Positions 28,116 to 48,609 are shown, counted from the first letter of the stretch. The stretch is DNA of 64,000 nt from a virus (IMGVR_UViG_3300021431_002079:1975-65974), one strand, 5' to 3'. Notes: generated by a model from the letters alone, not told the origin. A program made the numbers and translations.

Positions 28116-28930
28116 CGAAAGTTATTCCTTTTTTGTTATTTTTAAATAACATGCTAGATAAATCAGAAACATACATAAAAGAGTTATCTCATGCCATAAT
28201 TAACATATATAAATTATGGATAGAAGAAATGGGTTACGATTTTGGTGATACTAATAATTTTATTGAATACCGTAACTATTTAGCTAGTGAGCCTATGACA
28301 ATGACCGGTAATGATGGTCCAGATAATTTATTAGATGATTTCTCATTAGTAGGTATGGAAGATTTTTCTAATTATGAAGGCGAATTAATATCTGTAAACA
28401 AGTTATGGGAGTTATTTCCATCAGGTAATAAAAATTATATAGCAGCCGCAGTGTCAGCATTAGACAAATATGGGGCAAAAGTTGGTTTGACTAATAAAGG
28501 AAAGATAATGATACTTGGTCAGTTTGCTCATGAGTCTGGTCACTTTAACTTTACAAGAGAGATTGGTAGAGGTACAGGTAGATCTTACGGTAAACCTGCA
28601 GGTCCGTATAGACAGATTTATTATGGGAGAGGACCAATACAGATAACATGGGAACAAAACTATAAATATATAACAGAGCGATGTTTTCCAATTATTGGTT
28701 TAGATGCTGACATACATAGAAATCCTGACTTATGTTGTACAAATTTAGAGATAGGGTGTGCAGCATCATTATGTTGGTTTATGATACCAGGAAATGGCAG
28801 GCTTGGGATATCTGCAGCAAACTCTGGAGATATACGAACATTAACTAAAGCTATAAATGGTGGATATAATGGGTTAAAAGATAGAATAGAATGTACTAAA
28901 AAAATAATTGGTGCCGCAACTAAAAAATAA
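28097..28930 (+). CDS. GH19 (class I chitinase-like) peptidoglycan hydrolase / endolysin
   Basis: GQFAHESGHFNFTREIGRG ... YYGRGPIQITWEQNY matches the GH19 catalytic signature (QxAHETxxxxxxxE ... YxGRGxIQLTxxxNY); true start may be the downstream MLDKSE. Confidence 0.6.
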   Translation: MGNKGIAKVIPFLLFLNNMLDKSETYIKELSHAIINIYKLWIEEMGYDFGDTNNFIEYRNYLASEPMTMTGNDGPDNLLDDFSLVGMEDFSNYEGELISVNKLWELFPSGNKNYIAAAVSALDKYGAKVGLTNKGKIMILGQFAHESGHFNFTREIGRGTGRSYGKPAGPYRQIYYGRGPIQITWEQNYKYITERCFPIIGLDADIHRNPDLCCTNLEIGCAASLCWFMIPGNGRLGISAANSGDIRTLTKAINGGYNGLKDRIECTKKIIGAATKK

Positions 28931-28937
28931 TACACAC

Positions 28938-29549
28938 ATGGAAAAAACTAAACAAGAATCAAAAAACAATAAAAATAAAAAAATAAATGTCGAATTAATA
29001 TTAGATAAAAAAACAAATAAGTATTATACTAATGAAAGTATATTAATCGGTATTTCTCGACATGTTTTCTTAAATGCTGGTTATGTATTAGATCCAAACG
29101 GTAACCCAGTATTTGCAGGAGATGACTTAAGTCCTGGATTGTTTACTAGAAATGTTAGTGGGTGGGATATCCAAAAAGCATGTCAATGGGTGCATAATCA
29201 TGCAGGAGCATCTTCATTACATCAGTGTGCAAAATATATTAGATGTGGAATAGAAGCCGGTGGTGTTAGTACAACAGGACGACCAGCTTGGGCATGGAAA
29301 TATATAAATTTTTTACCAAGTATTGGATTTAAGTTTATAGATAAAGTGGATAATGATTATAATGGAGAACATGGATCTTATACTCCACAACCAGGTGATA
29401 TAGCAGTTTACACAAAAGGAGGAGATACTAATGCACCTGGTCATATATGTATGTGGACTGGCGCAGAATGGGCATCTGATTTTAGACAGAAAAAAATGAT
29501 AGTATACTCAAGTACTCCACAAGCATACATTTTTAGATTTGAATCATAA
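28938..29549 (+). CDS. CHAP-domain peptidase (cell-wall amidase/endopeptidase)
   Basis: Cys in HQCAKYIRCGIEAGG and His in GDIAVYTKGGDTNAPGHICMWTG, with CHAP-like spacing. Confidence 0.5.
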   Translation: MEKTKQESKNNKNKKINVELILDKKTNKYYTNESILIGISRHVFLNAGYVLDPNGNPVFAGDDLSPGLFTRNVSGWDIQKACQWVHNHAGASSLHQCAKYIRCGIEAGGVSTTGRPAWAWKYINFLPSIGFKFIDKVDNDYNGEHGSYTPQPGDIAVYTKGGDTNAPGHICMWTGAEWASDFRQKKMIVYSSTPQAYIFRFES

Positions 29550-31404: not shown

Positions 31405-31593
31405 ATGAAATCATTAAAAGAATACATAAATGAAGAATTACATGATGTAATTGTTAAAGTTGGCGATTACTGGAGAATAAAAGGTCATGCGGGTAAAGGG
31501 ACAAATACTCCTAAACGAGGATACTGGAAAGCTAAATATAAAACCAGAGAAGATGCTGAAAATGCATTAAAGGCATATTTTGCTAATAAATGA
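31405..31593 (+). CDS. CTS-like-leader small basic protein (62 aa)
   Basis: MKSLKEYINEEL leader; K/R-rich. Confidence 0.6.
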   Translation: MKSLKEYINEELHDVIVKVGDYWRIKGHAGKGTNTPKRGYWKAKYKTREDAENALKAYFANK

Positions 31594-31626
31594 AAATAAC
31601 TACAAAATAATCTATAAAATTAAAGT

Positions 31627-32166
31627 ATGAAAAATATTAACGAATATATAAATGAAAGTTCAAGTTTGTTTGATGATGGGGGATATGGAGACATGGCAAC
31701 AAACTATTTAGACTATTATGATGGTGACAAGAAATTTGGTGATCTTAAGAAGGGTGATATAATATACTTGTATAAATATTCTAATGATAAGATTATAGAA
31801 GTAACTGTCAATGGAACTGTTAAGACACAAAATAATCAAGTATATATAAAGACTAAATCATTCAAAATTAAACCAAATAGTAAATATTGTAAATCTCAAT
31901 CATCATTAGTATTTGGACCAGCAAATGGTAGCAGAAGTGGTCGTAGTGAAGACGATACAAAAGTTGTTGACTATTCTCCATGGAATGTTGAAAAATCTTC
32001 TATTTGTATTAGTTTTGGTGGAGGATATGCATTTGGAACTAACAAAGATAATGTTTTAAAATATGCAAAATCTGACATTACAAGTTCAATTAATAAGATA
32101 CAATCTGATATTGAAGACCTTCAAAATGAAATAAATAAATTGAGTGAAAAATTAAATAATATTTAA
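31627..32166 (+). CDS. CTS-like-leader protein (179 aa) with C-terminal coiled coil
   Basis: MKNINEYINESS leader. Confidence 0.6.
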   Translation: MKNINEYINESSSLFDDGGYGDMATNYLDYYDGDKKFGDLKKGDIIYLYKYSNDKIIEVTVNGTVKTQNNQVYIKTKSFKIKPNSKYCKSQSSLVFGPANGSRSGRSEDDTKVVDYSPWNVEKSSICISFGGGYAFGTNKDNVLKYAKSDITSSINKIQSDIEDLQNEINKLSEKLNNI

Positions 32167-32168
32167 TT

Positions 32169-32360
32169 ATGAAAACAATTAATCAATATATAAATGAAGG
32201 AACTCAAAATAACGAAGTTTTAGATTATCTTAAAAAGTTATATGATACATACACTAAAAAATTACATTCAAACTCAACAGTAATTGCAGATGTTGACAAA
32301 TACAGTTATGTTACTTACGAATTGAAGAAGATATTAAAAAAATTTAACGTTAATATATGA
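32169..32360 (+). CDS. CTS-like-leader small protein (63 aa)
   Basis: MKTINQYINEGT leader; ATGA overlap with next gene. Confidence 0.55.
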   Translation: MKTINQYINEGTQNNEVLDYLKKLYDTYTKKLHSNSTVIADVDKYSYVTYELKKILKKFNVNI

Positions 32361-32854
32361 AAACATTAAATAGTTATATAATACAAGAATCTTTAAAAGA
32401 TAAAATCAAAGCTTTAATAAATAAATTCAAAAAAGAAAAAGTTCCTGAAAAAGTTTATAAAGAAGAAGATTTATTAGAGTATAAAGATAAAGAAATAACT
32501 TTAGAAGATGGTGATGAAATCTTCGACATCTATACAAACACTTTACCTTATAAATCTAGTAGAACATCTGAATTTGAAAAGAATGCATTTAAGCAAGGTT
32601 TGTTCGATTATGCATGGTGTAATTATTCAAAAGATGTAGATAAAAACTTCAGATTTAATGAATTTGGAGATGATTTTGCAGATTGGGGATATTCTCGAGC
32701 TAATGATGAAAGTGGATATGACTGGAATGAAGTTGGTGTTGGGATGATGTTTATGGAACCATTCTTCTGGGGTTGGAAATGTGCGAAGAAATTAAATTTA
32801 AAATATAACTCAAAGGATAAAGTTAAATTACCTTTAAATAGATTTGCAAAATAA
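32357..32854 (+). CDS. CTS-like-leader protein (165 aa)
   Basis: MKTLNSYIIQESL leader. Confidence 0.6.
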   Translation: MKTLNSYIIQESLKDKIKALINKFKKEKVPEKVYKEEDLLEYKDKEITLEDGDEIFDIYTNTLPYKSSRTSEFEKNAFKQGLFDYAWCNYSKDVDKNFRFNEFGDDFADWGYSRANDESGYDWNEVGVGMMFMEPFFWGWKCAKKLNLKYNSKDKVKLPLNRFAK

Positions 32855-32858
32855 AATT

Positions 32859-33455
32859 ATGAAAACAATTAATCAATATATTACAGAATCAAATTACAAG
32901 TCATCAAACTTAGAAGATCTTAAGAAGCAACTTCTAAAAATGCATAATGGTGATCGTATTAATTTCTTGTGGGGTGTATCTCAAAAGGCAACAGATGCTA
33001 CTCAAAAAGATAGATATGTAACATATGCAATGTCTATTGACAAAACTCTAAATAAATATTATACATTCTCTTGTGATTTTATGTTCAGTCAAGGACATGA
33101 AATGGTTAAAGAAATCTGTAAAGATTTAGGAATTAAGAAATGGGCAAGACTTTTAGATATTGCTATAGTTGTAGATTATGAAGATATGGTTAAAATACTT
33201 GATGCAATGCCTAAATATTTTGATAAATACGCTAATAACAAAAAATATTTTAGTTTTGTATCATTTGACTATAAAGAAGCTGAAGAAGAATGTGCTCGTC
33301 AAAAACGTCCATTTGAGATTACTTCATTAGAAGATGAAATTAAAGCCACTGAGCAAGCAATAAAGAATCTTGAACAAAAGAAAGAACAACTTAATAAACT
33401 GAAGAAAGCCCAAGCTGAAGAAGATATGTATAAATGGGCAAATAGTGAAAAATAA
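32859..33455 (+). CDS. CTS-like-leader protein (about 198 aa) with C-terminal coiled coil
   Basis: MKTINQYITESN leader at internal Met of track ORF 32844. Confidence 0.6.
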   Translation: MKTINQYITESNYKSSNLEDLKKQLLKMHNGDRINFLWGVSQKATDATQKDRYVTYAMSIDKTLNKYYTFSCDFMFSQGHEMVKEICKDLGIKKWARLLDIAIVVDYEDMVKILDAMPKYFDKYANNKKYFSFVSFDYKEAEEECARQKRPFEITSLEDEIKATEQAIKNLEQKKEQLNKLKKAQAEEDMYKWANSEK

Positions 33456-33465
33456 AGACAATGTT

Positions 33466-34089
33466 ATGAAGTCACTTAATACTTATATTATAGAATCACA
33501 ACAATCTCATGTAGATGATTTCATTGATTTCTTGCTAAAAAATTCTAAAGAAGGAGAACTTAAGACTAATAATAAATCATACTATGATTATTTTAATGAA
33601 TGTGACCCTTTTGATAATTCAAAGTTTTCACAAAACATTGATATGACTGCTTATGCTGAAGACTATTGTGAAGAACATGAGTTAGATTCTGTATATGATG
33701 ATAAAGAAAACTTCATTAATTATATTAAAGATATAGTTGATGAACAATTGACTTTAGACTTAGATCATAATTTGATAAAGATTGAAAGAGTCATTAGTAT
33801 TGGTGATTCATCATTTTCAAAATATAAAGGAAATATAGGTATATATTGGACTTACATAGAAGGTATGGGTGATTCACATGGTGCTGTAGGTAGTTCAAGA
33901 AACAACATAACTATATGTGCATTAGTGGATCCTAAAGATGTAAATTGGGGAGAGACTATTGCAGCTAATATTATAGATCCAGATGAATGTGAATTAACAT
34001 TAAATGAAGATGCTCCTATACAAATTACAAAGATATTAGATGTTAACAGAAAACCTATAATAGAAAAAAATTTATTATATAAAGCTTAA
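33466..34089 (+). CDS. CTS-like-leader protein (about 207 aa)
   Basis: MKSLNTYIIESQ leader at internal Met of track ORF 33445. Confidence 0.6.
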   Translation: MKSLNTYIIESQQSHVDDFIDFLLKNSKEGELKTNNKSYYDYFNECDPFDNSKFSQNIDMTAYAEDYCEEHELDSVYDDKENFINYIKDIVDEQLTLDLDHNLIKIERVISIGDSSFSKYKGNIGIYWTYIEGMGDSHGAVGSSRNNITICALVDPKDVNWGETIAANIIDPDECELTLNEDAPIQITKILDVNRKPIIEKNLLYKA

Positions 34090-34733
34090 TGAAATCTTTG
34101 CATACATATATAGTCGAAAAATCATCAGATTTATATGGGTCAGAAACTGGTTTAATAATATTTGATATAGATGATACATTAGTTAAAGCAGATTCAAGTA
34201 TTATGAAAATATATAAAAATGAGCCAGGTAAACCAGAGATTGCATTAACAACGGATGAATATGCAAAAGATCCAGATGCAGGTGATTCAAGTAAAAAATC
34301 ATGGTTTGATTATAGAGATTTCAATGATCCATTAAAAGTTTATGATTCTATAGTTAAAGGAACACCATTAATTAAGAATCTAAAAATTATGGATTCATAT
34401 ATTAAAAAAGGTTATGATTTTTGTTTTTTGACGGCTCGTGGTTGTGAAGATGTTGTTAAAAGTGCATTAGATTCATTTTTAGAATTTAGAGATAAAGATG
34501 GTGTATTAAAAAAATTAGGAAATGTATTTAAGAAATCATTATCACATGCTATAAATGATGAAATGAAAAATTATTCAGGTAATAGTGATCCTGAAAAGAA
34601 AGCACAAGTATTAAAAAATTTATGTGATAAATATGATAAAGTGATATTTGTTGATGATGATAAGAAAAATGTAGATGCGGCTAGAAAATTAAATATAAAA
34701 AATCTAACAGTTATTAAAGCTTGGGAAGAATAA
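34089..34733 (+). CDS. HAD-superfamily phosphatase with CTS-like leader (Pnk-phosphatase-like candidate)
   Basis: leader MKSLHTYIVEKS; HAD motif I LIIFDIDDTLV (DxDxT); downstream FLTARG and VIFVDDDKKNV resemble motifs II/IV. Confidence 0.6.
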   Translation: MKSLHTYIVEKSSDLYGSETGLIIFDIDDTLVKADSSIMKIYKNEPGKPEIALTTDEYAKDPDAGDSSKKSWFDYRDFNDPLKVYDSIVKGTPLIKNLKIMDSYIKKGYDFCFLTARGCEDVVKSALDSFLEFRDKDGVLKKLGNVFKKSLSHAINDEMKNYSGNSDPEKKAQVLKNLCDKYDKVIFVDDDKKNVDAARKLNIKNLTVIKAWEE

Positions 34734-34755
34734 ATAAAAAATAAAATAAATATCT

Positions 34756-35406
34756 ATGAAATCATTAAAAGAATATATTATTAATGAATCTTTATCAAAT
34801 GAAATAACTGAATTAAGAAATAAATTAAAAAATTTAGATAAACAAAAAATTTTTGATGGAAATTATAATTTAGATGATTCATTAGATCAAGAATTTTATG
34901 ATATATTAATTTCATTAAATAGTCCAAATTCATCAAATAGTACTTTAATTAGTACATGGAAAATGTTGTTTTCAAAATTAATTGTTGAACCATTAGTTGG
35001 AGAATTAATAGGAGATAACAAATGTGAATACTCTACTATTAAAGTTGATAGAACAGAAAAATGGGATATTAAATATGATAACAATATATTAATAGACATA
35101 AAAGCAACTTATAATAATTATACACATAATTTTGGATTTTCTAAAAAGGATGCAGATTATGTAATAAATTATAATAAACAAGATATTAATAAAAGATATG
35201 TATTATTCGTATACCCAGAAATTAAAACTTGGAATGATGCTACGAAATTATATAAAAATAAATCTGAAGTTGACATGAAACTAATTAGTTATTCAGATTT
35301 TAAAGATATATTAAATAACAATGATTTTGAAGAAAAAAAATCAAACATATTAATTCCATATTCTTTCATTAATGAAAATGATAAATTTAGAAAGTTTAAA
35401 AAATAA
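34756..35406 (+). CDS. CTS-like-leader protein (216 aa)
   Basis: MKSLKEYIINESL leader. Confidence 0.6.
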   Translation: MKSLKEYIINESLSNEITELRNKLKNLDKQKIFDGNYNLDDSLDQEFYDILISLNSPNSSNSTLISTWKMLFSKLIVEPLVGELIGDNKCEYSTIKVDRTEKWDIKYDNNILIDIKATYNNYTHNFGFSKKDADYVINYNKQDINKRYVLFVYPEIKTWNDATKLYKNKSEVDMKLISYSDFKDILNNNDFEEKKSNILIPYSFINENDKFRKFKK

Positions 35407-35426
35407 TTAATTATATTAAAGCTATA

Positions 35427-35459
35427 AGAAAATCTATTAATAATGGATTTTCTTTTTTA
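35427..35459 (+). terminator. rho-independent terminator inside the cassette array
   Basis: stem agaaaatc / gattttct then T6. Confidence 0.5.
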
Positions 35460-35492
35460 TTTTTAAATATAAGAAAATTTTATTAAAACAAA

Positions 35493-36638
35493 ATGAAAAG
35501 TTTAAAAGAATCATTATCAGATAAAGGTATACAAAAATTAACAGATTATCTTAAATCTGCTGAAGGTTTAGAAGATTCAAAAATTGACGAATATATTAAA
35601 GTATTATCAAAACATGCCAAAAAATCAGGTATAAAACAAGATGACTATGAAACATTCTTTAAAAATCATGGTTTATCTGAATTAAATTGGGGAAGAAAAA
35701 ATAGTGCAATTAAACAATTTGTTGATTTATTCTCTGAAAATGATCATATAGATGAATTATCAAACATAGTAAAATATAATGGAACTGTTTCTATTGATAA
35801 TGTAACAGAAACTGGTAATATATTTAAGGATTATTGTAAAGGGTGGGAAGATGAAGCAAAAACAATTGCTACATGGACCAATTCTAAATCGGCTAATGCT
35901 GGACCTTGTGAAATGCTTTTGAAATTTATACTTCATGAAGGTAATTCTAAAACTTTTGGAGATGTTGGAATAAATGATGAAGAAATGGAAGTAAAAGCTG
36001 GAACACTTAAAGGAAAATCTGGTTCAGGCGGTCATGCAGCAGGTCAAAAAGGAAACATTAGAAAAACATCGTCTATATATTATTATTTAGATAAATATTT
36101 ATTAAATATAGAAACATCTAATAAGATTGCAGAAAATAGAGAATATTTGCAAAATGAAAATGGTATTAAAGATTTTAATAATAAATTAAAAGAAGCTGGT
36201 TTACTTGAATCATCAAATTATAAAACGATTGCTAATAATATAGTTGGTGCATTATGCTTCCAATATGATGAAGCAAATACTAATACATTAAATTCTGATA
36301 AATTAGAAAATTTGCAAAAATCAACATTAAAATTTATTAAAGATAATATAAAGGCAGACGGGTTTAATAAACAAGATTTATTAAATTTAGTTGGGTGTAT
36401 TCAATTATATCTTTATTCACAAATAGAAAAATTTGATTATTTTTTCGCTGTGCTTGTAGATAAAAACATAGATAATGAATCTATTAATAATGGCTTTTAT
36501 ATTTGTGTAAAAAATTGTAAAGATAATGATAGTGATTTATTAAATTTTAATAAAATGTTAAAACATTTAAAATTTGGTGTATTAGATTCAACAACATCTT
36601 CACAAGGAAGAACTGGTAAAATATATATAGTTAAATAA
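35493..36638 (+). CDS. hypothetical protein (381 aa) with truncated leader
   Basis: MKSLKESLSD (leader lacking YI); Gly-rich KGKSGSGGHAAGQKGN segment. Confidence 0.5.
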   Translation: MKSLKESLSDKGIQKLTDYLKSAEGLEDSKIDEYIKVLSKHAKKSGIKQDDYETFFKNHGLSELNWGRKNSAIKQFVDLFSENDHIDELSNIVKYNGTVSIDNVTETGNIFKDYCKGWEDEAKTIATWTNSKSANAGPCEMLLKFILHEGNSKTFGDVGINDEEMEVKAGTLKGKSGSGGHAAGQKGNIRKTSSIYYYLDKYLLNIETSNKIAENREYLQNENGIKDFNNKLKEAGLLESSNYKTIANNIVGALCFQYDEANTNTLNSDKLENLQKSTLKFIKDNIKADGFNKQDLLNLVGCIQLYLYSQIEKFDYFFAVLVDKNIDNESINNGFYICVKNCKDNDSDLLNFNKMLKHLKFGVLDSTTSSQGRTGKIYIVK

Positions 36639-37357
36639 TGAAACAAGTAAAAGTGTGTCTAGGAAGATTCCAACCTTTCACATTAGGTCATCTTAAGATG
36701 GCTACTTATAAAGATTTAAAAGGTCCTGATAAAGAGCAGAAAGATACTTTAAGAGAACAACCTAATTTAAAAGAAATATCTAATCAAAAAACAGTCATAT
36801 TAGCTATATCTACCCCAGACGAAAAGGTAGATACTAGGCATCCTTTCAATGATAGTTTAATGAAAGATGAATTTGAATTGATAAAGAAAAACTACAAGGA
36901 TGATATTGAAGATATTATTTATGTTAAGTCAGCTGATATATGTGCATGGGGTGAATTATTAAAACAAAAAGGTTATCAAGCTTCCGTGTGGTTAACTGGT
37001 TCAGATGAGTTTAAGATGTATAAAGGTATGGCAATGAAAGTTCTAGAGTATGAAGAACATAATAGAAATAATTATGATTGCAAAGGAGCTTACACACAAT
37101 CATTTTATGTAGAAGAAATTGAACGTACAGAAGATAAAGATTTTGTATCATCAATATCCGGAACAAAAGTTCGTCAAGCTTTATTAGATAATGATAAAGA
37201 ATTATTTTCAAAGATGATGCCAAAAGGAGCAGATAAATATTTTGATGAATTTAAGAAAGCTGTTGAAAATGCTCCAGAACCTGTAAAGAAAACAAATAAA
37301 AAAGTTAAAGAAGGAATGATGTCTCTTAAGAATTACATATTAGAATCATTAAAATGA
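36638..37357 (+). CDS. cytidylyltransferase-fold adenylyltransferase (NMNAT/NadM-like or PPAT-like); C-terminus carries a leader remnant
   Basis: VCLGRFQPFTLGHL = GRFQPF + (H/T)xGH nucleotidyltransferase signature; ISGTKVRQAL resembles the ISSTxIR motif; no N-terminal leader, but the ORF ends ...MMSLKNYILESLK. Confidence 0.5.
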   Translation: MKQVKVCLGRFQPFTLGHLKMATYKDLKGPDKEQKDTLREQPNLKEISNQKTVILAISTPDEKVDTRHPFNDSLMKDEFELIKKNYKDDIEDIIYVKSADICAWGELLKQKGYQASVWLTGSDEFKMYKGMAMKVLEYEEHNRNNYDCKGAYTQSFYVEEIERTEDKDFVSSISGTKVRQALLDNDKELFSKMMPKGADKYFDEFKKAVENAPEPVKKTNKKVKEGMMSLKNYILESLK

Positions 37358-38283
37358 AATCACTTATAACATACATACAAGAATCTTTAATATTTGAAGG
37401 TGGGCATTCTGTGGATGGTGTTGAACCTATTCGTGGAGATTTAGCAAAAAAAGTTGCAGATGAGATTATTGAAAAAATAAAAAATGAATTCAATATAGAA
37501 TGTGCAGCTCTTGGATCAACAGGTAAGAAAGGTAAAAATCAAACATCTGGAGATATAGATATCGCCGTTCAAATGCAATGGGAAGATAAAGATAAACTTA
37601 TAGATTTTGTTAAAAAGGAATTTCCTGATAGTCCATTTGGAAATATCGTTAACTATCTTAATGTATTTAATATTGGATATAAATATAATGAAGATGGTAA
37701 AGATAAGTTAGTTCAAGTGGACTTTATGTTTGTTGATGATGTTGAATGGGCACAATTTGTTTATTTCTCTCCAAATTTCTTAAAGAATGAATCTCAATTT
37801 AAAGGATCATGGAGGTCAACATTATTAAGAGGTATATGTGCATGTACACCAGCAGAAAAAGTAAACAAAAAATATAAAACAGAATATTTTGATGATGGTA
37901 AGACAGTAAAATCATTTTGGAAGTTTACATTTTCACAGGCTGATGGGTTATTTGCAGATCATAAAACATATGAAGGTAATAAAAAACCTTTGAAAAATCC
38001 TAAGACAATAAAAGACGATAGAGAATACATATCTAAAAATATTGAAGAAATATTACATATGTGCTTAGGTAAAGATGCAACACGAGATGATTGTAATTCA
38101 TATGAGACATTACTTAATTTTATATCTAGTGATAGATATGAATTTAGATCTGTAGAACAGTTACAAAAAATTAAAGAATGGTTATTTGATAATACAGACC
38201 TACTTAGAGAAGCAACAGATCAAGTTAAGAAGGATGCTGAAAATTTATTCGATAATACTATAAAATATATAAAACAAATTTAA
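37354..38283 (+). CDS. Pol-beta-superfamily nucleotidyltransferase with CTS-like leader (paralog A)
   Basis: leader MKSLITYIQESL; AALGSTGKKGKNQTSGDIDIAVQ = hG[GS]...[DE]h[DE]h NTase motif; third acidic residue in VQVDFMFV. Confidence 0.6.
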   Translation: MKSLITYIQESLIFEGGHSVDGVEPIRGDLAKKVADEIIEKIKNEFNIECAALGSTGKKGKNQTSGDIDIAVQMQWEDKDKLIDFVKKEFPDSPFGNIVNYLNVFNIGYKYNEDGKDKLVQVDFMFVDDVEWAQFVYFSPNFLKNESQFKGSWRSTLLRGICACTPAEKVNKKYKTEYFDDGKTVKSFWKFTFSQADGLFADHKTYEGNKKPLKNPKTIKDDREYISKNIEEILHMCLGKDATRDDCNSYETLLNFISSDRYEFRSVEQLQKIKEWLFDNTDLLREATDQVKKDAENLFDNTIKYIKQI

Positions 38284-39158
38284 TGAAATCATTATTAACA
38301 TATATAAAAGAATCATTAATAAATGAAGGTGGCAATGCTGTAAAATCAGAACCAATTCCAGCAGTTATTGCACCAAAGGTATATGACGAAATAGAAGAGA
38401 AAGTACATTCTATATCTAAGTTTAAAGATATAGATATGGCAGCATTAGGTAGTATCGGTAAAAAACCAGATGACCAAACAAATGGAGATATAGATATTGC
38501 TGTTAAAGTTGACACAAAAGAAGAACTTAATGAAATAGTTGATACATGTTTTGATGATTGTGAAATTAACTATAACACAATGAAAACTATTACGTCGTTT
38601 GGGTATCCGTATAACATAGATGGTTATAAAGGAATTGCACAAGTTGATTTTATGATAGTTAAAAATATGGACTGGGCAAAAGCATATTTCCATTCTCCTA
38701 ATCTTAAGGCTGGTGAATCTAAATATAAAGGAGTTGTTAGAACAACATTGTTAAACGATATTATTTCATGTATACCAGTTAAAGATGCTAAAGATGAATA
38801 CTTTGAAGATGGTGTTACAGTTAAACGTCATTGGAAACATACATTTAATACTGAAGGAGTATTTATTCAATTAGTAGATTATTGTGGTAAGAATGGTAAA
38901 CCTGTAAAAAATGGTAAAAAACTTAAAGAGTTTGAAAAATTAGTTACCAATGATCCAATAAATATGGTTAAATTTATATTTGGTGATAATGGTGATATTA
39001 AAGATATAAATTCAGCTGAATCATTATGGGCAGCAATTCACGATAATAATAAATTTTCTTGGGGAGATACTATATTAAAAAATATAGAAGAAAAATTTAT
39101 TAATGACCCTCAAGTGCAAGATAAGATAGATAAAAAGGATTTTCCTTGTAAGTTTTAA
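38283..39158 (+). CDS. Pol-beta-superfamily nucleotidyltransferase with CTS-like leader (paralog B)
   Basis: leader MKSLLTYIKESL; AALGSIGKKPDDQTNGDIDIAVK; AQVDFMIV; clear paralog of 37354. Confidence 0.6.
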   Translation: MKSLLTYIKESLINEGGNAVKSEPIPAVIAPKVYDEIEEKVHSISKFKDIDMAALGSIGKKPDDQTNGDIDIAVKVDTKEELNEIVDTCFDDCEINYNTMKTITSFGYPYNIDGYKGIAQVDFMIVKNMDWAKAYFHSPNLKAGESKYKGVVRTTLLNDIISCIPVKDAKDEYFEDGVTVKRHWKHTFNTEGVFIQLVDYCGKNGKPVKNGKKLKEFEKLVTNDPINMVKFIFGDNGDIKDINSAESLWAAIHDNNKFSWGDTILKNIEEKFINDPQVQDKIDKKDFPCKF

Positions 39159-39179
39159 AAATATATAATATAATAAATT

Positions 39180-39581
39180 ATGAAAAATATAGTAGATTAC
39201 ATATCTGAAGCATTATATGTAAACGAGAGTGCTAATGGTAACCAAGTTATATTTAACGCTTGTATGGAATTAGATAATAATAAAACAATATATGAAAAAC
39301 AACTTTTGCCATTAGTTAAAAATTTAGTAAAGAAACACAAAGATGGTAAGTTCGATATTAAAAAACTTGAAGAATCATCAGTTATAGCTAAGTTATGCCA
39401 AGCATGTTTACGTGCAGTTAAAAGCTCATTAACTGGTGAAGATAGAAAGCGTTTGACTAAATTTGTTACTGGTTGTGTTATTAAAAATGTTGAAAACATT
39501 GGAGAACTAACACTAACAAAGGAAGAAGAAGATTATGCTGTTGAATGGGATTACAATAATTCCGAAAAATGTGGATGGTAA
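39180..39581 (+). CDS. CTS-like-leader protein (133 aa)
   Basis: MKNIVDYISEAL leader. Confidence 0.55.
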   Translation: MKNIVDYISEALYVNESANGNQVIFNACMELDNNKTIYEKQLLPLVKNLVKKHKDGKFDIKKLEESSVIAKLCQACLRAVKSSLTGEDRKRLTKFVTGCVIKNVENIGELTLTKEEEDYAVEWDYNNSEKCGW

Positions 39582-39584
39582 TAC

Positions 39585-40943
39585 ATGGATTATTTAGTAG
39601 ACAAATATATTAAAAAACCTGATTACGTTAAAGAATTGTTTAACAAATCAGCAACCGTATCATTAAAGATTGATGGTTCAGCATTTCAGATATTTTATAA
39701 TAAAGAAGAAGATAAAATAGAATATCATAAACGTGGTGGATCATCAAGTAAGCTTGGTCCAATTATTGATGAGTATACACAATTGTTTACAAAACATTTA
39801 AATGATGCTATAGAGTTTTTTGATAATAAAAAAGATTTATTAAAAGAAAATAAATTCTATGCTATTGAAATATTTAATAATATGTATGTTCTTTTAACTG
39901 TAATAGATAATAATGATAATATAATCACTGAAGTATCTGATATAGCAAGAAAATTAAATATTGAATCTTTACCGATTTTATTTAATGGTAAATTAAAATT
40001 TAATGACGATATTATCTCATTATTAACTTTAGATGAAAATACATCAAATGAAGATTTTATATCAGCAATTAAAGGAACATTTGGACCTGGAGATTATGAA
40101 AAATTCTTAAAAGGAGATGAAGTTGAAGGTATTGTTTTAACATGGGTTGTAGATAATAAACCATTACAATATAAAATTATTAATCCTGCATTTAAGACAA
40201 GACATGAAGCTGAACAAAAGAATAAATTAAAAGAAGCAGAAAAAGATACAAAACAAATAAACAAGTTAATAGAATCTTTATATGATAGACTAAAAGATGT
40301 TGCTAAATATAGAGATGATAACTGGATAAAAAATCTTGATTTAAATTTCTTTGAAATGTGTTCAGATCCTAATTGGTTATCAGATATTAAAAATATAGCA
40401 AAAGAGATAACTCCAAACACTAATAAATGGTTTATACTTCAAACAAATAGAGTAAGCTCAATTATAAAAGATTTATTGGATCATAATGGAAATGAAATGA
40501 AAACCATTTATGAAAAATATTTAATGACTTTCAATAAACCAAAAAAGAGAGCATTTATTATATCTAAAGAATTTCAAAATAATATAAATAACATAATAGA
40601 AAAACTACAATCGGTAAAAGAATCATTAAAATTATATACTAAAATAAATATGAAATCAATATCACAATACATAAATGAATCACAAGATAAGTATTTTACT
40701 GAACAAGAAAAAGGTAAGATACTAAAAGATATGTGGGATAAGGATGGACAATTTTATAAATTTTTAAAAGATAAAGTTAATTCATTATGTGCTGCAGATA
40801 TAAATAATTATTTTGACCAATGTTTAGATGATGAAAGATGTTTAGCAGAATTTGCCTCATATATTAGTATGGTTATCGGTCGTCATAACTTTAGTTTAGA
40901 ACAAGTTAAAAAATTTATGAATACTGAAGATCTTAAAGGATAA
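39585..40943 (+). CDS. RNA ligase-like nucleotidyltransferase (KxDG) fused in-frame to a leader-tagged C-terminal module
   Basis: ATVSLKIDGSAFQIFY (motif I KxDG at residue 28), EVEGIVLTW (motif V-like); an internal leader MKSISQYINESQ at 40650 (codon 356) begins a about 98-aa C-terminal segment that may be a separate gene. Confidence 0.55.
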   Translation: MDYLVDKYIKKPDYVKELFNKSATVSLKIDGSAFQIFYNKEEDKIEYHKRGGSSSKLGPIIDEYTQLFTKHLNDAIEFFDNKKDLLKENKFYAIEIFNNMYVLLTVIDNNDNIITEVSDIARKLNIESLPILFNGKLKFNDDIISLLTLDENTSNEDFISAIKGTFGPGDYEKFLKGDEVEGIVLTWVVDNKPLQYKIINPAFKTRHEAEQKNKLKEAEKDTKQINKLIESLYDRLKDVAKYRDDNWIKNLDLNFFEMCSDPNWLSDIKNIAKEITPNTNKWFILQTNRVSSIIKDLLDHNGNEMKTIYEKYLMTFNKPKKRAFIISKEFQNNINNIIEKLQSVKESLKLYTKINMKSISQYINESQDKYFTEQEKGKILKDMWDKDGQFYKFLKDKVNSLCAADINNYFDQCLDDERCLAEFASYISMVIGRHNFSLEQVKKFMNTEDLKG

Positions 40944-40969
40944 AATATAAAAAAATTATATAAATAAAA

Positions 40970-41260
40970 ATGAAAACAATAAAAGAAATATTATTGGAAG
41001 GAAAAAATAATTCATTACCTTGGAGTTCATCAGCAGCATGGATTTATGTATTGTCATGTATTGCTAATGTAAACGAAAGAAAATTATTTGAATCATTAAA
41101 TAAAAAGGTTTTATCTAATGATGAATCAAAAGAAATTATTAGTTTATTAAAAAGATTTGTTCCAGAAGGATTTAAACTTGAATATATTAATGATTTATTT
41201 GATATTCTTAGAGAATTAAATATTAAACCACAAAAATCTAAATTATTAATTGAAAATTAA
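40970..41260 (+). CDS. small protein (96 aa) with variant leader
   Basis: MKTIKEILLEG. Confidence 0.45.
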   Translation: MKTIKEILLEGKNNSLPWSSSAAWIYVLSCIANVNERKLFESLNKKVLSNDESKEIISLLKRFVPEGFKLEYINDLFDILRELNIKPQKSKLLIEN

Positions 41261-41266
41261 AATGAT

Positions 41267-41604
41267 ATGAAAGACATTAAAGAATATATTTTAGAATTCC
41301 AAAAAACTTGGCAAACAACAATAATAGATATTGCAAAACAATATGTTGTTTAACCTAATGGGGGTGAATATAAAAAAATCAGATATTGAAAAAATGATAA
41401 GTAGTAAGAAAATAGATGGAGAGTTAATTGCTTATTTATGTGAATATATTGCTTATTCTGTAACAAATAAATATGGGGATGATGAAGGAACCTATACATT
41501 TATTTGACAAGCAGATTTTCAATATGAAGGAAATATTGGAAAAATTAGTGTATATAAAGATTATGAAGAATTAGTAACAAAAACATTTAAAAAATATAAA
41601 TAAT
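41267..41604 (+). pseudogene. frameshifted leader-tagged cassette gene (three consecutive short frames)
   Basis: MKDIKEYILEFQKTWQTTIIDIAKQYVV* (41267-41353), then MGVNIKKSDIEK...TYTFI* in +1, then QADFQYEGNIGKISVYKDYEELVTKTFKKYK* in another frame; A7 run at 41383-41389. Confidence 0.45.
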
Positions 41605-42204
41605 ATGAAAACATTAAAAACATTTATTTTAGAATCTCAATCAGAAATTTTACCTATAATAAAAAGAATGATGGGATCAATTGATTATTCAAAACTAAAA
41701 TCATATAATGGAGAACAAGATTCAAACAAATTTGATGTTCAAAAAGAAAATGAACTTTTATTAATTAGTAATATTGATGAAGGCGATGATTTTAAGTTTG
41801 TTGGAACTGCTGAATATTATAATATTGAAACAGGAAAAGATTTCAATAGTTTATCTGATAAAGAAAAGGCAGATTATGATTCTAAAAATGGAGATATTAT
41901 TGTTTTAGATAAAGATAATAATATTAAATTTAGAATTGATGTTAAACTTAGTGATAAATATTTAGGAGCTATATCATTAGGTTCATTAACTAAATTTGAT
42001 AAAGATGGATATTATTTATTAATCTGTAAAACTGGTAAATTCTTCAAATTAGTATCTCATAAAGATGTTGTAGATAATGTTAAGAATGGAAAATTAAAAT
42101 TAAATGCTCCTATAAATAATTATAAAGGTTATGATGTAGAATGGGAAGGTGAAAAATTAACATCAGAATATTTTATTAAAGGAGCAGATTTAAGAAAAAT
42201 TTAA
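41605..42204 (+). CDS. CTS-like-leader protein (199 aa)
   Basis: MKTLKTFILESQ leader. Confidence 0.6.
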   Translation: MKTLKTFILESQSEILPIIKRMMGSIDYSKLKSYNGEQDSNKFDVQKENELLLISNIDEGDDFKFVGTAEYYNIETGKDFNSLSDKEKADYDSKNGDIIVLDKDNNIKFRIDVKLSDKYLGAISLGSLTKFDKDGYYLLICKTGKFFKLVSHKDVVDNVKNGKLKLNAPINNYKGYDVEWEGEKLTSEYFIKGADLRKI

Positions 42205-42215
42205 TAATTTATATT

Positions 42216-42530
42216 ATGAAAAACTTAAATGATTATATTATAGAAAGTGGCCCAGTTAAAGTAACAACTGGTGCAGGTTGCGTAGAAATGATTAAAATAA
42301 TTATTAATGAACTTTCAAAAAATCCTGATTACAAAGGAAAGAATAAAGAATTATGGAAATCTGCAGGACAATTTTTATATGATTATCTTAGAGAGTTAAA
42401 TAATTCTGATTATGAAAAAATTGTTAGTGAATTAGAACTACCAGATTTAAGGAATAACAAAGATGAAGAATTTTCTCCAGATACGGTACAATTTGCAATG
42501 GTATTAAAAATGAAAGACATGAAAAAATAA
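42216..42530 (+). CDS. CTS-like-leader protein (104 aa)
   Basis: MKNLNDYIIESG leader. Confidence 0.55.
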   Translation: MKNLNDYIIESGPVKVTTGAGCVEMIKIIINELSKNPDYKGKNKELWKSAGQFLYDYLRELNNSDYEKIVSELELPDLRNNKDEEFSPDTVQFAMVLKMKDMKK

Positions 42531-42568
42531 AATAAAGTGGGGAATAAACATTTATTTAATAACTTAAG

Positions 42569-42602
42569 AGTATCACAATTTAAAATTGTGATACTTTTTT
42601 TA
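42569..42602 (+). terminator. rho-independent terminator closing the cassette array
   Basis: stem agtatcacaatt / aattgtgatact then T7. Confidence 0.65.
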
Positions 42603-42712: not shown

Positions 42713-45241
42713 ATGAAAACAATATATATAACATTACTTTGTATTTTATTAAATTTTACACCTATAAATTTTATACCTGTAAATTCTCAGACTCGTGCAG
42801 AAATGTCAAGTCAACAATGGTGTGGAGTAATGGTTGACACAATTATTGGAAATGATAAGTATCCTGATGTTTTTGATAGAGACCCACAAGGCTTACCTAT
42901 TATATTATATAATGTTGGTACTGGATGTTTTATAACCCAAGGTGGAGATTGGGCTATGGAAGGTCGTCTATTTTATTCTGATTTTGGACGAACTATGTAT
43001 TTATGTAACAATGGACGTATAAACAGTGGTATTACTGAAAGAAATGTTAATGTTAAGAAGAATAGTTTTTGTGTAAGACCACCAGCACCATTTGGAAAAA
43101 ATTGGAATGACATTAAAAACATCAATTTCACTACGTTGATGGATGGTGAATATAGAAACGAAACTTTTCAAAAATGGGAATTTGAACGTATTGAAGGTGA
43201 AACTGGAGATACTTGCACATATTATATGTATCAGAAATTTAATACTAACACAAAATACTACTTTGGTGCTGTCTATGGGGAATACAACGGTGACAAGGGT
43301 GTTGGGCAATTAATATTTCTTGATGATGATCGTTCTTGTTGGACAACAGCACCAGTTAAAGGTGTAACAACAAAATATCAATTAGAAAATGGAGATGAAG
43401 TCGAATTACAAAAACTTTATCAATGGCGCTTAGTTTCCATCGAAGAATTTTTAAGAGTATTAAATAGTGATGAAGCTGGATTAAATCCAAGTGTATCAGC
43501 ATTGATACCAGATAGAGATTTTACTCGTAATGCTATTGATTTCTTTAGTGAAAATCCTAATCATGGTTGGACAATATGCCGTTTAGCTAATCATACATAT
43601 AAAGATGGTGATGATAAACGTTATCCATACACATGGGGTAACTATAAGATGGGATCTGATGTTAATAGTAACAAACAACGTTCAAGAGAATTATTAGAGG
43701 AATCATGGGATTCTCCTGTAAGATTAAAGGCTGTATTTGATGCTGATATAACCCAAGAACGTGGTAAGAAAGATGCTAAATATGGGTTTATGGAATTTGA
43801 AGGTGTTGGATATATTTATTCAAATTTCAAAGTAACTAAACCAGGTTGGTATGAAATAACTTCTATTGCGATTAATCAAAGTGATAATAACGATGCACAT
43901 ATGTTTGCTCGTGTAATAGATGATGCAGATAGTCTAAAACAAGAAAATGAATTTGAAATACCAATAACAGATATACCAAGTTATAGTAGTATTGAATTAG
44001 ATAAAGTATCATTAGGAACATATAAAAAAGGATACGATAATAATGGAAAAGATGGATATGAGAATTGTTTAGTTATGGGTAAAGAATTACTTGCCAATGG
44101 TGAAGTTCATCAAAGAAAAGTTTGGGTATTAGTTTCTGAAAAGGATTTTAATGATGGTAAGAAAACAATTCGTGTAGGTATTAGGAAAGATAATGCTACA
44201 ATGTCTAATAAAACTAATGGTGGTTATTATGACTTAGATTGGGTATGTGTAGATGATATACGTGCAATATATATGGGTATGTCTCCAGCATTCTTTTATG
44301 AAGACATGGAAACTTTAAATTACCTTGATGATATAAATCACGAGGATCTTTACTTAGCTAATGAATACCCAAAACGTGGTCCTGAAGGTGAGTATGGAGG
44401 AGCTGTTAGTATACAACGTAAGTTCACTAATAATGAATGGAATACATTTTCATTTATATTACCATTAACTGGAGAACAAATTCGTAATGCATTTGGTGAT
44501 AAAACTGAATTATTAGAATTAGTTGGTATTGGTACATTATCAAATAATGAAAATATTATTGATTTTAAAACAGTTAATTTAATAACATTAGATCATGTTG
44601 TTGTACCAGGAAAACTTTATATGATTAAACCATCAAAGTTACCAGTGTATGGTGAAAGTCCTCGTAAGACAAGGGCGTACTATTATGACTTAGGTAGAAT
44701 GTTTTTCTCAATTAAATCTGAACCACAAGAGTATAAATATCCTGTTATAGATTTAACAAAGTTACCATATAAGAGTACTGATGTTGGTTCATATCAAGGT
44801 AGAAATAATGGAACAGAACATGTGACATACATTCAAACTCCAAATTACAGTAATTTTAGAGTTGATAGATATGGGAATGTGATGGCTAAAGTTAATGCTG
44901 TAGATAGTACATATGCACCAAAAGGAGCTTATGTAATGAGTGGTGGAAAAATGTATGAATTAGCTAAAGATACTCCACTTAAAGGATTCCGTGGATGGAT
45001 AACATTAACCCATAGCATATTTGCAAATAGTAGTGCAGCTGCTTTAGGAACACCATTTTCAATAAATGGTATATTTGATCAAGATGAAACCCCAATAGAA
45101 ACTGACACAAAAATAATTACATCTATAAAAAACACCAATACATCAATATATGATATAACTGGTAAAAAGATTACTAATTCAATTAACTCTTTATCACCGG
45201 GTTTATATATCGTAAATGGAAAAAAATTACTTATAAAATAA
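42713..45241 (+). CDS. secreted protein (842 aa) with Sec signal peptide and T9SS (Por) C-terminal sorting domain
   Basis: N-terminus MKTIYITLLCILLNFTPINFIPVNSQT (signal peptide); C-terminus ...NTNTSIYDITGKKITNSINSLSPGLYIVNGKKLLIK matches the Por_Secre_tail pattern (vYDlxGrxV...LxxGiYivk...kk). Confidence 0.7.
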   Translation: MKTIYITLLCILLNFTPINFIPVNSQTRAEMSSQQWCGVMVDTIIGNDKYPDVFDRDPQGLPIILYNVGTGCFITQGGDWAMEGRLFYSDFGRTMYLCNNGRINSGITERNVNVKKNSFCVRPPAPFGKNWNDIKNINFTTLMDGEYRNETFQKWEFERIEGETGDTCTYYMYQKFNTNTKYYFGAVYGEYNGDKGVGQLIFLDDDRSCWTTAPVKGVTTKYQLENGDEVELQKLYQWRLVSIEEFLRVLNSDEAGLNPSVSALIPDRDFTRNAIDFFSENPNHGWTICRLANHTYKDGDDKRYPYTWGNYKMGSDVNSNKQRSRELLEESWDSPVRLKAVFDADITQERGKKDAKYGFMEFEGVGYIYSNFKVTKPGWYEITSIAINQSDNNDAHMFARVIDDADSLKQENEFEIPITDIPSYSSIELDKVSLGTYKKGYDNNGKDGYENCLVMGKELLANGEVHQRKVWVLVSEKDFNDGKKTIRVGIRKDNATMSNKTNGGYYDLDWVCVDDIRAIYMGMSPAFFYEDMETLNYLDDINHEDLYLANEYPKRGPEGEYGGAVSIQRKFTNNEWNTFSFILPLTGEQIRNAFGDKTELLELVGIGTLSNNENIIDFKTVNLITLDHVVVPGKLYMIKPSKLPVYGESPRKTRAYYYDLGRMFFSIKSEPQEYKYPVIDLTKLPYKSTDVGSYQGRNNGTEHVTYIQTPNYSNFRVDRYGNVMAKVNAVDSTYAPKGAYVMSGGKMYELAKDTPLKGFRGWITLTHSIFANSSAAALGTPFSINGIFDQDETPIETDTKIITSIKNTNTSIYDITGKKITNSINSLSPGLYIVNGKKLLIK

Positions 45242-45518: not shown

Positions 45519-46202
45519 ATGTTAAATATAAACACATATATAAACGAGAAACTTAACATATCCACCAAGTACACCTGTAAACCAAAAGATAAATATGAGC
45601 TTAGAGATATAATAGAAAAACGTCTTGAGAAAGATAAAGATGTAGACTTAAATGATATAGATGTGTCAGATATAACAGATATGTCAATTTTATTCTGGAA
45701 ATTAGACCCTCATAATATAGACATAAGTGAGTGGAATGTTTCAAAAGTTAAAAGCATGGAGAGTATGTTTTTTAGTTGTAAAAACTTTAATTGTGACTTA
45801 AGCAATTGGAATGTCTCTAATGTTTATAATATAACATCTATGTTTAGTGAATGTGAAAGTTTTAATTCAGATTTAAGTAACTGGGATGTTTCGAATGTTA
45901 TAAACATAGATAGCATGTTTGACAATTGTAAAAAATTTAATTGTGATTTAAGTAGTTGGAATGTCTCAAAAGTTAAAAATATGTCTTGTATGTTTTTAAA
46001 TTGTGAAAACTTTAATTCAGATATAAGTGAATGGGATGTCTCAAAAGTTACAGAGATGAGATACATGTTTTATAATTGTAAAAATTTTAATTTTGACTTA
46101 AGTGGTTGGGATGTCTCAAATGTTAAAGATATGACAAAAATGTTTGAAGGTTGTACATCATTAAAAAATAAACCTAACTGGTACCATGAAGAAGATAACT
46201 AA
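45519..46202 (+). CDS. DUF285 / 26-residue-repeat protein with leader (array 2, copy 1; 7 repeats)
   Basis: MLNINTYINEKLNIS; 227 aa. Confidence 0.7.
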   Translation: MLNINTYINEKLNISTKYTCKPKDKYELRDIIEKRLEKDKDVDLNDIDVSDITDMSILFWKLDPHNIDISEWNVSKVKSMESMFFSCKNFNCDLSNWNVSNVYNITSMFSECESFNSDLSNWDVSNVINIDSMFDNCKKFNCDLSSWNVSKVKNMSCMFLNCENFNSDISEWDVSKVTEMRYMFYNCKNFNFDLSGWDVSNVKDMTKMFEGCTSLKNKPNWYHEEDN

Positions 46203-48584: not shown

Positions 48585-48609
48585 GTTTAATTTTAAGTAA
48601 TTTTTAAAA

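Follow-up and report, generated by a model that had tools for sequence, protein, structure and literature searches.

The capsid-targeting sequence (CTS) of phage T4, MKTYQEFIAE, is cleaved once, releasing the internal proteins (IPs) (PMC8442874). The tag is sufficient and modular, and in its 10-residue form (MK...aromatic-Ile-x-Glu) it is carried by the unrelated proteins IPI, IPII and IPIII and by the propeptides of Alt and gp24; the gp21 prohead protease processes it. The T-even internal proteins are diverse defence proteins that have only the CTS in common (PMC3012670). Their genes are polymorphic and the cargo differs between phages (Repoila et al. 1994, as cited in PMC9026906 and PMC3012670), and this has been interpreted as an arms-race repertoire of injected anti-defence proteins. 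Mutagenesis by Mullaney and Black, as summarized in PMC9026906, assigned targeting mainly to residues 4 and 7 of the T4 CTS and processing to residues 8 and 10. In the jumbo myoviruses phiKZ, 201phi2-1 and SPN3US, the head contains ~50 proteins, many of them packaged and ejected, and a gp21-like protease cuts C-terminal to Glu; the propeptides of giant phages have been inferred to direct their cargo into the prohead (PMC5694885). Here, a 64,000-nucleotide stretch of viral DNA (IMGVR_UViG_3300021431_002079:1975-65974) was analyzed, in which at least 28 genes begin with a 10-residue leader that resembles the T4 CTS; 17 leader-tagged genes form a cassette at positions 31405–42530 on the + strand. 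The whole stretch is called the window below, and its genes are named by their first position in it. A preliminary description, made from the sequence alone, had likened the leader to the T4 CTS, giving the sequence of the latter in agreement with PMC8442874. The leader is read here in the same way, as a T4-type CTS by which the cargo proteins would be encapsidated, cleaved after Glu10 and ejected, and the probability of this reading is put at roughly 0.6.

The leader follows the profile MK-x-[LI]-x-x-[YF]-I-x-E over ten residues at the protein N-terminus. An 11-position position-specific scoring matrix (PSSM) was trained on 14 unrelated window leaders and run on 561 ATG-start candidates. The scores were bimodal: 27 open reading frame (ORF) starts, all on the + strand, scored above 12 bits and the rest 5 bits or less, with a spurious − strand ORF (10.8 bits) as the lone exception. 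In the six-frame translation, the regular expression MK....[YFL][ILV].[EQ] matched 26 times, always on the + strand and in 25 cases at an ORF start, against a chance level of 0.34 ± 0.59 matches (maximum 3) in 200 block shuffles of the window. Independently of the PSSM, 249 pairs of window ORFs had at least 5 of 10 N-terminal residues in common, compared with 0–4 pairs in sampled regions of a Lak megaphage, the uncultured phage LR756500 and another relative. The earlier count of at least 28 tagged genes was confirmed by the 27 PSSM starts together with the degenerate gene 35493 and the frameshifted 41267. With 35493 counted and 41267 left out, 28 of the 57 + strand genes (~49%) are tagged. The tagged proteins are 62–381 aa long, and a transmembrane-like segment is found in none of them.

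Information content in the non-redundant window leaders was highest at M1, K2, [LI]4, [YF]7, I8 and E10, and low at positions 3, 5, 6 and 9. Ile8 and Glu10 were invariant in all 15 of these leaders, by which the I-x-E cleavage motif claimed earlier is retained at the sequence level; position 4 was Leu or Ile and position 7 Tyr or Phe, likewise in 15 of 15. Among 92 family representatives from other loci, Glu10 was present in 85 and Ile or Leu at position 8 in 90. The conserved positions 4, 7, 8 and 10 coincide with the targeting and processing residues of the T4 CTS, position 4 being aliphatic in the window leaders and Tyr in T4.

As a control, the window-only PSSM was applied to positions 1–135,000 of T4 (80% of the genome, all but 135–169 kb; 1,284 ATG candidates). 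The genes for IPIII and IPII were retrieved as ranks 2–3 of 1,284 (12.0 bits), and IPI, Alt, gp24, gp67 and gp68 were missed. Rank 1 (13.8 bits) was gp61.1 (NC_000866, 18966–19130, − strand), a hypothetical protein of 54 aa that begins with MKTFKEFIKE/D (the slash after Glu marks the putative cleavage position here and below). Its first seven residues (MKTFKEF) are identical to those of IPI, and it could be an overlooked CTS-bearing T4 protein. Between the window and T4, a graded series was observed: MKSLKEYINE in the window, MKSLNEFLNE/A in the related locus L064, MKSFKEYIGE/A and MKSFKTFIKE/K in locus L097, and MKTYQEFIAE/A in T4. L097 belongs to a bona fide T4-type phage with a UvsX that has the T4 C-terminal domain, a gp41-like helicase and a ribonucleotide reductase (RNR), and its MKSFKEYIGE/A leader sits on an RNA ligase.

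The tag co-occurs with a prohead protease and with head cleavage motifs. The gp21-like protease reported earlier at 51532 was recovered as a Peptidase_S77 protein (51532–53280, + strand; Pfam PF03420, 6.6e-12; PHROG head maturation protease, 2.5e-42). It is 28% identical to T4 gp21, and its GELEHP and SSRGAG are aligned to the His and Ser motifs GELNHP and SSRGLG. The protease N-terminus, MTNKRCLIYE/T (clade-wide M-x-x-K-x-C-[LM]-[IV]-[YF]-E/TLG), parallels MNEPQLLIE/TWG of gp21, in which the LIE-9 site has been noted (PMC9026906). The gp23-like major capsid protein (MCP; 53382–55139, + strand; Pfam Gp23, 7e-31) contains the putative sites MFINE/Q, MLKE/N and IHEIHE/S. All 18 of 18 MCP relatives have an M[FL]I[NT]E/ start, MLKE/N and IHEIHE/S or IHEIHE/A, then a variable linker and the conserved shell domain, a pattern that, judged by the motifs, is as expected of a gp23-like propeptide. 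Between the protease and an upstream gene for an SPFH-family protein, a 203-aa acidic, helical protein (50853–51464, + strand) is a candidate prohead core or scaffold protein by position and composition; a search for a family match to it gave none.

The C-terminal half of the protease (52400–52900) contains seven W-x-x-E-E-F-A-P-E-V-Q-N repeats in tandem, with a poly-acidic/Lys linker and a coiled coil ahead of them. The W-x-x-E-E-F-A-P-E repeats occur in 4–9 copies in clade members, in two copies in loci L014 and L019, and not at all in LR756500 and Tenacibaculum phage pT24; in these last four, few or no tags were seen. It is suggestive that the repeat region may serve as a scaffold or docking array, and the correlation of repeats with tags is confounded by phylogeny. 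A wider form of the CTS reading is more doubtful: in it, the tag would be a clade-wide plug-in toolkit that provides dozens of injected proteins per genome, among them enzymes of RNA repair and nucleotide metabolism, DUF285 binders and fast-evolving ORFans, the tag would also act as a cleavable linker in fusions, and the 4–9 W-x-x-EEFAPE repeats would form a docking array that sets the load. The repeat region of the window protease also matches Pfam KilA-N (5.7e-8, residues 305–387).

Whether the conserved unit is the peptide or the underlying nucleic acid was judged from the codons and the flanking DNA. The leader could in principle be an mRNA or translation element, such as an AT-rich unstructured initiation region or a regulator site in a host poor in Shine-Dalgarno sequences, with the residue conservation as a by-product. 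Such an element would suit the AT-rich genome (~28% GC over the window, with a range of 22–37% across it) and the AT-rich leader codons, as well as a modest codon bias at Tyr7 and Ile8. Tyr7 is encoded by TAC in 13 of 24 leaders, compared with 18% genome-wide (p = 3e-5), and Ile8 by ATA in 20 of 25, compared with 49% genome-wide; this TAC-ATA bias is small, lies atop the peptide conservation and is partly owed to the DUF285 paralogues described below. Otherwise, the leaders use different synonymous codons for one and the same residue (Ser TCA/TCT/AGT, Leu TTA/CTT/TTG/CTA, Ile ATA/ATT, Tyr TAC/TAT). The mean nucleotide identity of the leaders is 69%, and leaders that agree in a residue also agree in its codon with a probability of 0.69, as against ~0.6 from genome codon usage, so that the synonymous variation is near the genome expectation. 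The DNA upstream of the cassette genes is unrelated from gene to gene. The equally AT-rich Lak and LR756500 regions are without the tag, and tagged genes were also found in loci of 35–41% GC, because of which base composition does not account for the motif.

Copies of the motif without a Met also speak against a translation element. Recurrent cytidylyltransferase-nucleotidyltransferase (NTase) fusions of 500–540 aa in the relatives hold the motif at the domain junction, Met-less and far from any start (for example, IKPLAQYIKE/SLLFEGGHS and KSLIQFIKE/SNISHILKYINE/GGHS). The window counterpart of the fusion is split: the cytidylyltransferase-like ORF 36638 ends in the leader-like peptide MMSLKNYILESLK (37315–37357, + strand), and the leader of NTase 37354 follows at once. 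A scan of the window for internal Met-less copies gave the 36638/37354 site, the 39585/40650 junction and one marginal case, with 0.7 expected. The codon variation, the unrelated upstream DNA and the internal copies point to selection of the tag at the peptide level, and they disfavor an effect at the RNA or translation level only, which the preliminary description had named as a way for its proposal to fail. The translation element is accordingly held to be very improbable. The codon analysis led to the rejection of both a DNA recombination site and a translation element as the main cause. An alternative genetic code was also considered and rejected, as stop usage (TAA 48, TGA 8, TAG 1) is that of the standard code.

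The spread of the tag was followed in 106 sources, namely the window and 105 loci that were mostly gathered via MCP or NTase alignments; a single-protein NTase query had found no related loci, and the alignment-based search succeeded. The relatives in IMG/VR are jumbo phages on contigs of up to 435 kb, with MCP identities of 48–84% and the T4 hallmark genes gp2, gp13 and gp32. In total, 218 ORFs scoring at least 12 bits were found in 42 of the 106 sources, with a maximum of 16 in 21 kb. When the bodies (residue 15 to the end) were clustered by BLASTP at 1e-4, the 218 tagged ORFs fell into ~99 families, which bears out the expectation that related phages carry the leader on different cargo. Strong purifying selection on given residues across phages of 48–84% MCP identity indicates function. 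In the window, too, the cargo was found to be unrelated downstream of the leader, as described earlier, and includes a nucleoside diphosphate kinase (NDK), a HAD hydrolase, Pol-beta-fold NTases, DUF285 proteins and many ORFans. A longer subtype of the leader, MK-x-[LI]-x-x-Y-I-x-E-K-L-[HN]-L-[NS]-K, was also observed, in L009 (2811–7000), L008 (5320–7030), L085 and the DUF285 genes of the window. It is common to many adjacent genes with BLAST-unclustered bodies, eight of them consecutive in L009, and if cut after Glu10, the mature proteins would begin with KLHLNK.

The cassette backbone is conserved and syntenic but plastic, and is formed by the gp14-like, HAD, cytidylyltransferase, NTase, RNA ligase and 40650 families. 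Around it, the tagged genes 31627, 32169, 33466, 39180, 40970 and 41605 have a homologue in 0 of 10 related loci, in line with the term "hyperplastic cassette" used in the first account. The neighborhood of a HAD phosphatase, a HIGH-motif cytidylyltransferase-like NTase, a Pol-beta-fold NTase and an RNA-ligase-like protein recurs from the jumbo clade to ordinary T4-type phages (window 34089–40943; L097 9018–12373; L012; L020; L027–L036), with a P-loop kinase added in L013 and with fusions of its members in places. Its gene content suggests an RNA-repair or a nucleotide- or NAD-related pathway.

Shared leaders on so many genes might also reflect common descent from one diversified paralogous family, or a recombination scar or cassette-shuffling site, in either case without a targeting function of the leader itself. 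The 11 DUF285 genes are indeed true paralogues with similarity beyond the leader, the locus is hyperplastic, and the leader-leader junctions (36638/37354 and 39585/40650) and the fusion and split variants suggest recombination at or near leaders. However, descent or a scar would have to explain ~99 BLAST-unrelated body families, among them NDK, HAD, Pol-beta NTase and HIGH-motif NTase proteins with independent cellular homologues, and would have to do so while distant relatives of the tagged proteins are untagged. Moreover, 30 nucleotides at ~69% identity are a poor recombination substrate, and the flanking DNA is unconserved. Such an origin is considered improbable, though slightly less so than a translation element.

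That the tag is a module apart from its cargo was also seen in individual proteins. Of the 120 homologues listed for NTase 37354, most bear the leader, and the remotest ones (P0022, P0054–56, P0063, P0065, P0066 and those of Lak phages) start directly at the EGG...PIRGD core. In an AlphaFold2 model of 37354 (mean predicted local distance difference test score, pLDDT, 92.7), a Pol-beta/lambda-like fold begins at ~residue 23 with a core pLDDT above 90, and residues 1–20 (pLDDT ~52) form an isolated helix at 4–12 followed by a disordered linker. Foldseek matched this model to Pol-beta/lambda structures at a distance (TM-score ~0.4) and the NTase profile had no significant sequence match in the PDB, for which reasons 37354 is called no more than a Pol-beta-fold NTase. 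In the tagged HAD protein, the Pfam domain starts from residue 22. The cytidylyltransferase and the RNA ligase are tagged in L012 and L097 and have no N-terminal tag in the window. By these comparisons the tag is modular, and phages can differ in whether a given domain bears it.

If the leader is a T4-type CTS, it would form a short amphipathic helix that a flexible linker joins to the cargo domain behind it. In head assembly, the helix would bind the prohead core or scaffold, and its hydrophobic positions 4 and 7 would determine the targeting. Formation of the gp23-like shell would then enclose the cargo. The S77 protease would then cut after Glu10 in [ILV]-x-E, as it would in the MCP propeptide, at its own N-terminus and in the scaffold; for 37354, the predicted post-cleavage N-terminal peptide (from residue 11) is SLIFEGGHSVDGVEPIR, and the mature MCP is predicted to begin at S49 (SQIGVNG...). 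The mature cargo would be freed inside the capsid and ejected along with the DNA. A tag this short, which is modular and sufficient by itself, would bring any gene that gains it into the packaged set. Such easy acquisition would lead to a repertoire with fast turnover, made up of the conserved HAD/cytidylyltransferase/Pol-beta NTase/RNA-ligase module, NDK, DUF285 repeat proteins and many ORFans. The packaging capacity is plausible, since giant-phage heads hold ~50 protein species (PMC7411985) and tens of MDa of ejection proteins (PMC7411985 and PMC5694885). At the level of sequence, the reading is well supported, as each of its predictions that could be examined there held.

Several observations weigh against this reading. 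The likeness to T4 rests on a 10-residue peptide and may be due to convergence. In T4 itself, the best-scoring gp61.1 is not a known virion protein, and therefore a motif match alone is no proof of packaging; Alt, gp24, gp67 and gp68 are real gp21 substrates, yet the PSSM did not detect them. No homologue of gp22, gp67 or gp68 was identified by sequence in the window. The nearest cultured phages, at 30–34% MCP identity, have few or no tags. About half of the local + strand genes are tagged, which is a very large share for virion-internal proteins. By its predicted domains, much of the cargo looks like ordinary cytoplasmic nucleotide or RNA enzymes (NDK, HAD, cytidylyltransferase, NTase, kinase). 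Finally, the mature cargo is predicted to be mostly acidic, unlike the basic, DNA-associated IPs of T4. An isoelectric point (pI) above 8.5 was computed for 4 of 19 mature cargo proteins (15993, 31405, 32169 and 40970), most having a pI of 4.3–6.8 and a size of 100–310 aa. The "small basic proteins" of the preliminary description are thus few, and most of the predicted mature cargo is acidic or neutral. Basicity is a feature that defines the IPs and not the CTS mechanism, because T4 Alt and foreign proteins fused to the CTS are also packaged.

The same enzymes are what would be expected if the leader were a protein-level address to another destination: a cytoplasmic enzyme or replication complex, S77-dependent activation or timed degradation outside proheads, or an oligomerization helix. 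Richness in nucleotide and RNA enzymes (to those above, RNA ligase and P-loop kinase may be added), the acidic mature cargo and the ~49% tagged share of + strand genes all suit an address of this kind, and the tagged genes of L097 have replication genes as neighbors (UvsX, helicase, RNR). The location of tagged genes does not discriminate, since in T4, too, the ip genes are found away from the structural module. What an address outside the capsid leaves unexplained is the coincidence with the T4 CTS residues and the retrieval of ipII and ipIII, as well as the [ILV]-x-E sites on the MCP propeptide and the protease N-terminus. To our knowledge, no cytoplasmic address tag of such a kind exists in T4-type phages, and this was counted against the proposal. 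Overall, a non-capsid address is regarded as unlikely, and as the most serious of the competing explanations.

Compared with T4, the CTS reading shares positions 4 and 7, the I8/E10 motif, the S77 catalytic motifs, the [LI]-x-E sites of the MCP propeptide and a polymorphic locus. The scale differs: T4 has three IPs and Alt, and the window has at least 28 tagged genes in 64 kb, with ~99 families across the relatives. The repertoire was earlier called several-fold larger than that of T4, which is upheld for the tag count. T4 IPs are small, highly basic and DNA-associated, and T-evens have a handful of such proteins per phage; the window clade has dozens, mostly acidic enzymes and repeat proteins, including recognizable enzymes and an 11-member DUF285 paralogue family. 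Also unlike T4, the tag is found internally or C-terminally in fusions, and the protease has a scaffold-like region with repeats fused to it. The phages form a distant jumbo clade, known here from sequence alone and linked to T4 in its MCP by the Pfam Gp23 match only. In the phiKZ/SPN3US type, propeptides are mostly longer than 100 residues and protein-specific, the motif is A/S/G-x-E, and 8–19 proteins are processed; the window leader, in contrast, is a uniform T4-type 10-mer with an aliphatic P3 and [ILV]-x-E. The polyvalent proteins of phages and conjugative elements described by Iyer and Aravind likewise deliver many counter-defence and takeover activities with the DNA (PMC7824862). In these, many domains are joined in one giant polypeptide, whereas the window has separate small tagged proteins and occasional tag-joined two-domain fusions.

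Cargo with nothing but the CTS in common is already established in T-evens, so that what is new here is the scale, the type of cargo and the lineage, and not the principle. In the literature searched, no report of CTS-type tags in jumbo, huge or mega-phages was found, nor a description of the scale, the cargo classes, the internal or C-terminal use of the motif, the deep uncultured jumbo branch or the graded series to T4. Should the tag function as a CTS, none of the other phage systems compared would come near this one in its repertoire of tagged capsid cargo. The set of injected proteins ("ejectome") of an uncultured jumbo-phage clade could then be predicted from sequence alone, and the T4 CTS would prove to be an old and portable module that belongs to the T4 superfamily at large and is no T-even peculiarity. 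There would also be ~100 candidate families of early-acting effectors, including the HAD/cytidylyltransferase/NTase/RNA-ligase module, as anti-defence and host-takeover targets, and a natural 10-residue tag for engineered protein delivery by phages of this group.

In the cassette, the tagged genes start at 31405, 31627, 32169, 32357, 32859, 33466, 34089 (HAD), 34756, 35493, 37354 and 38283 (both Pol-beta-fold NTases), 39180, 40650, 40970, 41267, 41605 and 42216, all on the + strand. The 17 starts given before were confirmed: each is an ATG and begins an ORF with the N-terminus described, with qualifications for 32357, 34756, 35493, 40970, 40650 and 41267. The leaders of 32357 (YIIQE) and 34756 (YIINE) have a one-residue insertion, and that of 40970 (MKTIKEILLE) is weak. 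The leader of 35493 (35493–35525) is degenerate (MKSLKESLSD, i.e. MKSLKE----SLSDK). Its homologue in L029 has the intact MKHLSEYFFE/SLSKE, because of which 35493 is taken as a natural four-residue deletion of the leader core (Y-x-x-E) in an otherwise intact ORF of 381 aa. Gene 41267 is a leader with a 28-codon ORF, a frameshifted remnant, and at 41267–41510 the reading continues in another frame (...NMLFNLMGVNIKKSDIEKM...); the frame break therefore means a frameshifted pseudogene, a sequencing error or programmed frameshifting.

Two cassette genes, also on the + strand, have no N-terminal tag: the cytidylyltransferase-like 36638 (36638–37357) and the RNA-ligase-like 39585 (39585–40943). The leader of 40650, MKSISQYINE/S (40650–40682, + strand), is complete and lies in frame within the 452-aa ORF of 39585, at residue 356; by its position it may serve as an internal start or else as a cleavable junction. 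The 97-aa family downstream of it is a separate tagged gene in relatives. The cassette is closed by a strong intrinsic-terminator-like hairpin with a 15-bp stem and a T-run (42566–42598, + strand). For ten cargo proteins, PHROGs gave marginal matches only (E ~0.01), and Pfam gave nothing for most cargo ORFans.

Outside the cassette, an additional tagged gene that was absent from the earlier list encodes an NDK (15993–16400, + strand; MKSLSVYIQE/S), with the NDK domain from residue 17. The 11 DUF285 genes with the leader that had been counted earlier were all found (16401, 23045, 23713, 24309, 24905, 25505, 25955, 26623, 45519, 46186 and 46700), and the Pfam DUF285 assignment was tested on two of the 11. 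The first directly follows the NDK gene (16401–17000, + strand; MRTIDSYINE/K), seven are in tandem (23045–26994, + strand) with the N-terminus MK-x-I-x-x-Y-I-x-E-KLNLS, and three lie beyond the cassette (45519–47221, + strand), the one at 45519 having an ML- start.

The window as a whole represents the late structural module of a myovirus of the T4 type that is only distantly related to T4, and the tagged genes lie on the same strand within it, among the genes for a gp13-like adaptor (8410), a gp14-like head-closure protein (29567), the candidate scaffold protein, the protease, the MCP and the tail sheath (58873). Outside IMG/VR, the nearest database phages have 30–37% MCP identity and comprise the uncultured LR756500, Tenacibaculum phages pT24 and PTm1, Sphingomonas phage PAU and the Lak megaphages. 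No cultured close relative was present in the collections searched, and megablast of the cassette against INPHARED phages gave no match. Tag scans were negative for a Lak megaphage (35 kb) and LR756500 (41 kb), and gave weak, sporadic candidates only in Tenacibaculum phage pT24 (92 kb).

Some further features were recorded in the window. The octamer TATAAATA, the T4 late-promoter sequence, occurs at 53372, 58852, 50823, 17059, 40959 and 41595, in each case 3–20 nt ahead of a start codon; the genes concerned are those for the MCP, the tail sheath, the scaffold-like protein and an immunoglobulin-domain structural protein, and two cassette genes. It was not used as evidence, because its enrichment is mild (39 vs 28 ± 4.8) and two cassette genes only are concerned. 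After the cassette terminator, an 842-aa ORF (42713–45241) has a signal-peptide-like N-terminus (MKTIYITLLCILLNF...); it had no Pfam or PHROG match and a homologue in 0 of 10 related loci. At 48069–50724, just upstream of the scaffold-like, protease and MCP genes, a 171-aa transmembrane-like protein is followed by the SPFH/Band-7 protein of 704 aa. In the latter, the N-terminus has a transmembrane-like segment, and there is a very long coiled coil rich in Ala, Glu and Lys. In T4, this place is taken by the portal and core genes. A T4 gp1-like dNMP kinase (27066) lies between the DUF285 array and the gp14-like gene, and three separate endolysin/GH19-like ORFs are found in the structural region (19818–20447, 28097–28930 and 28908–29549).

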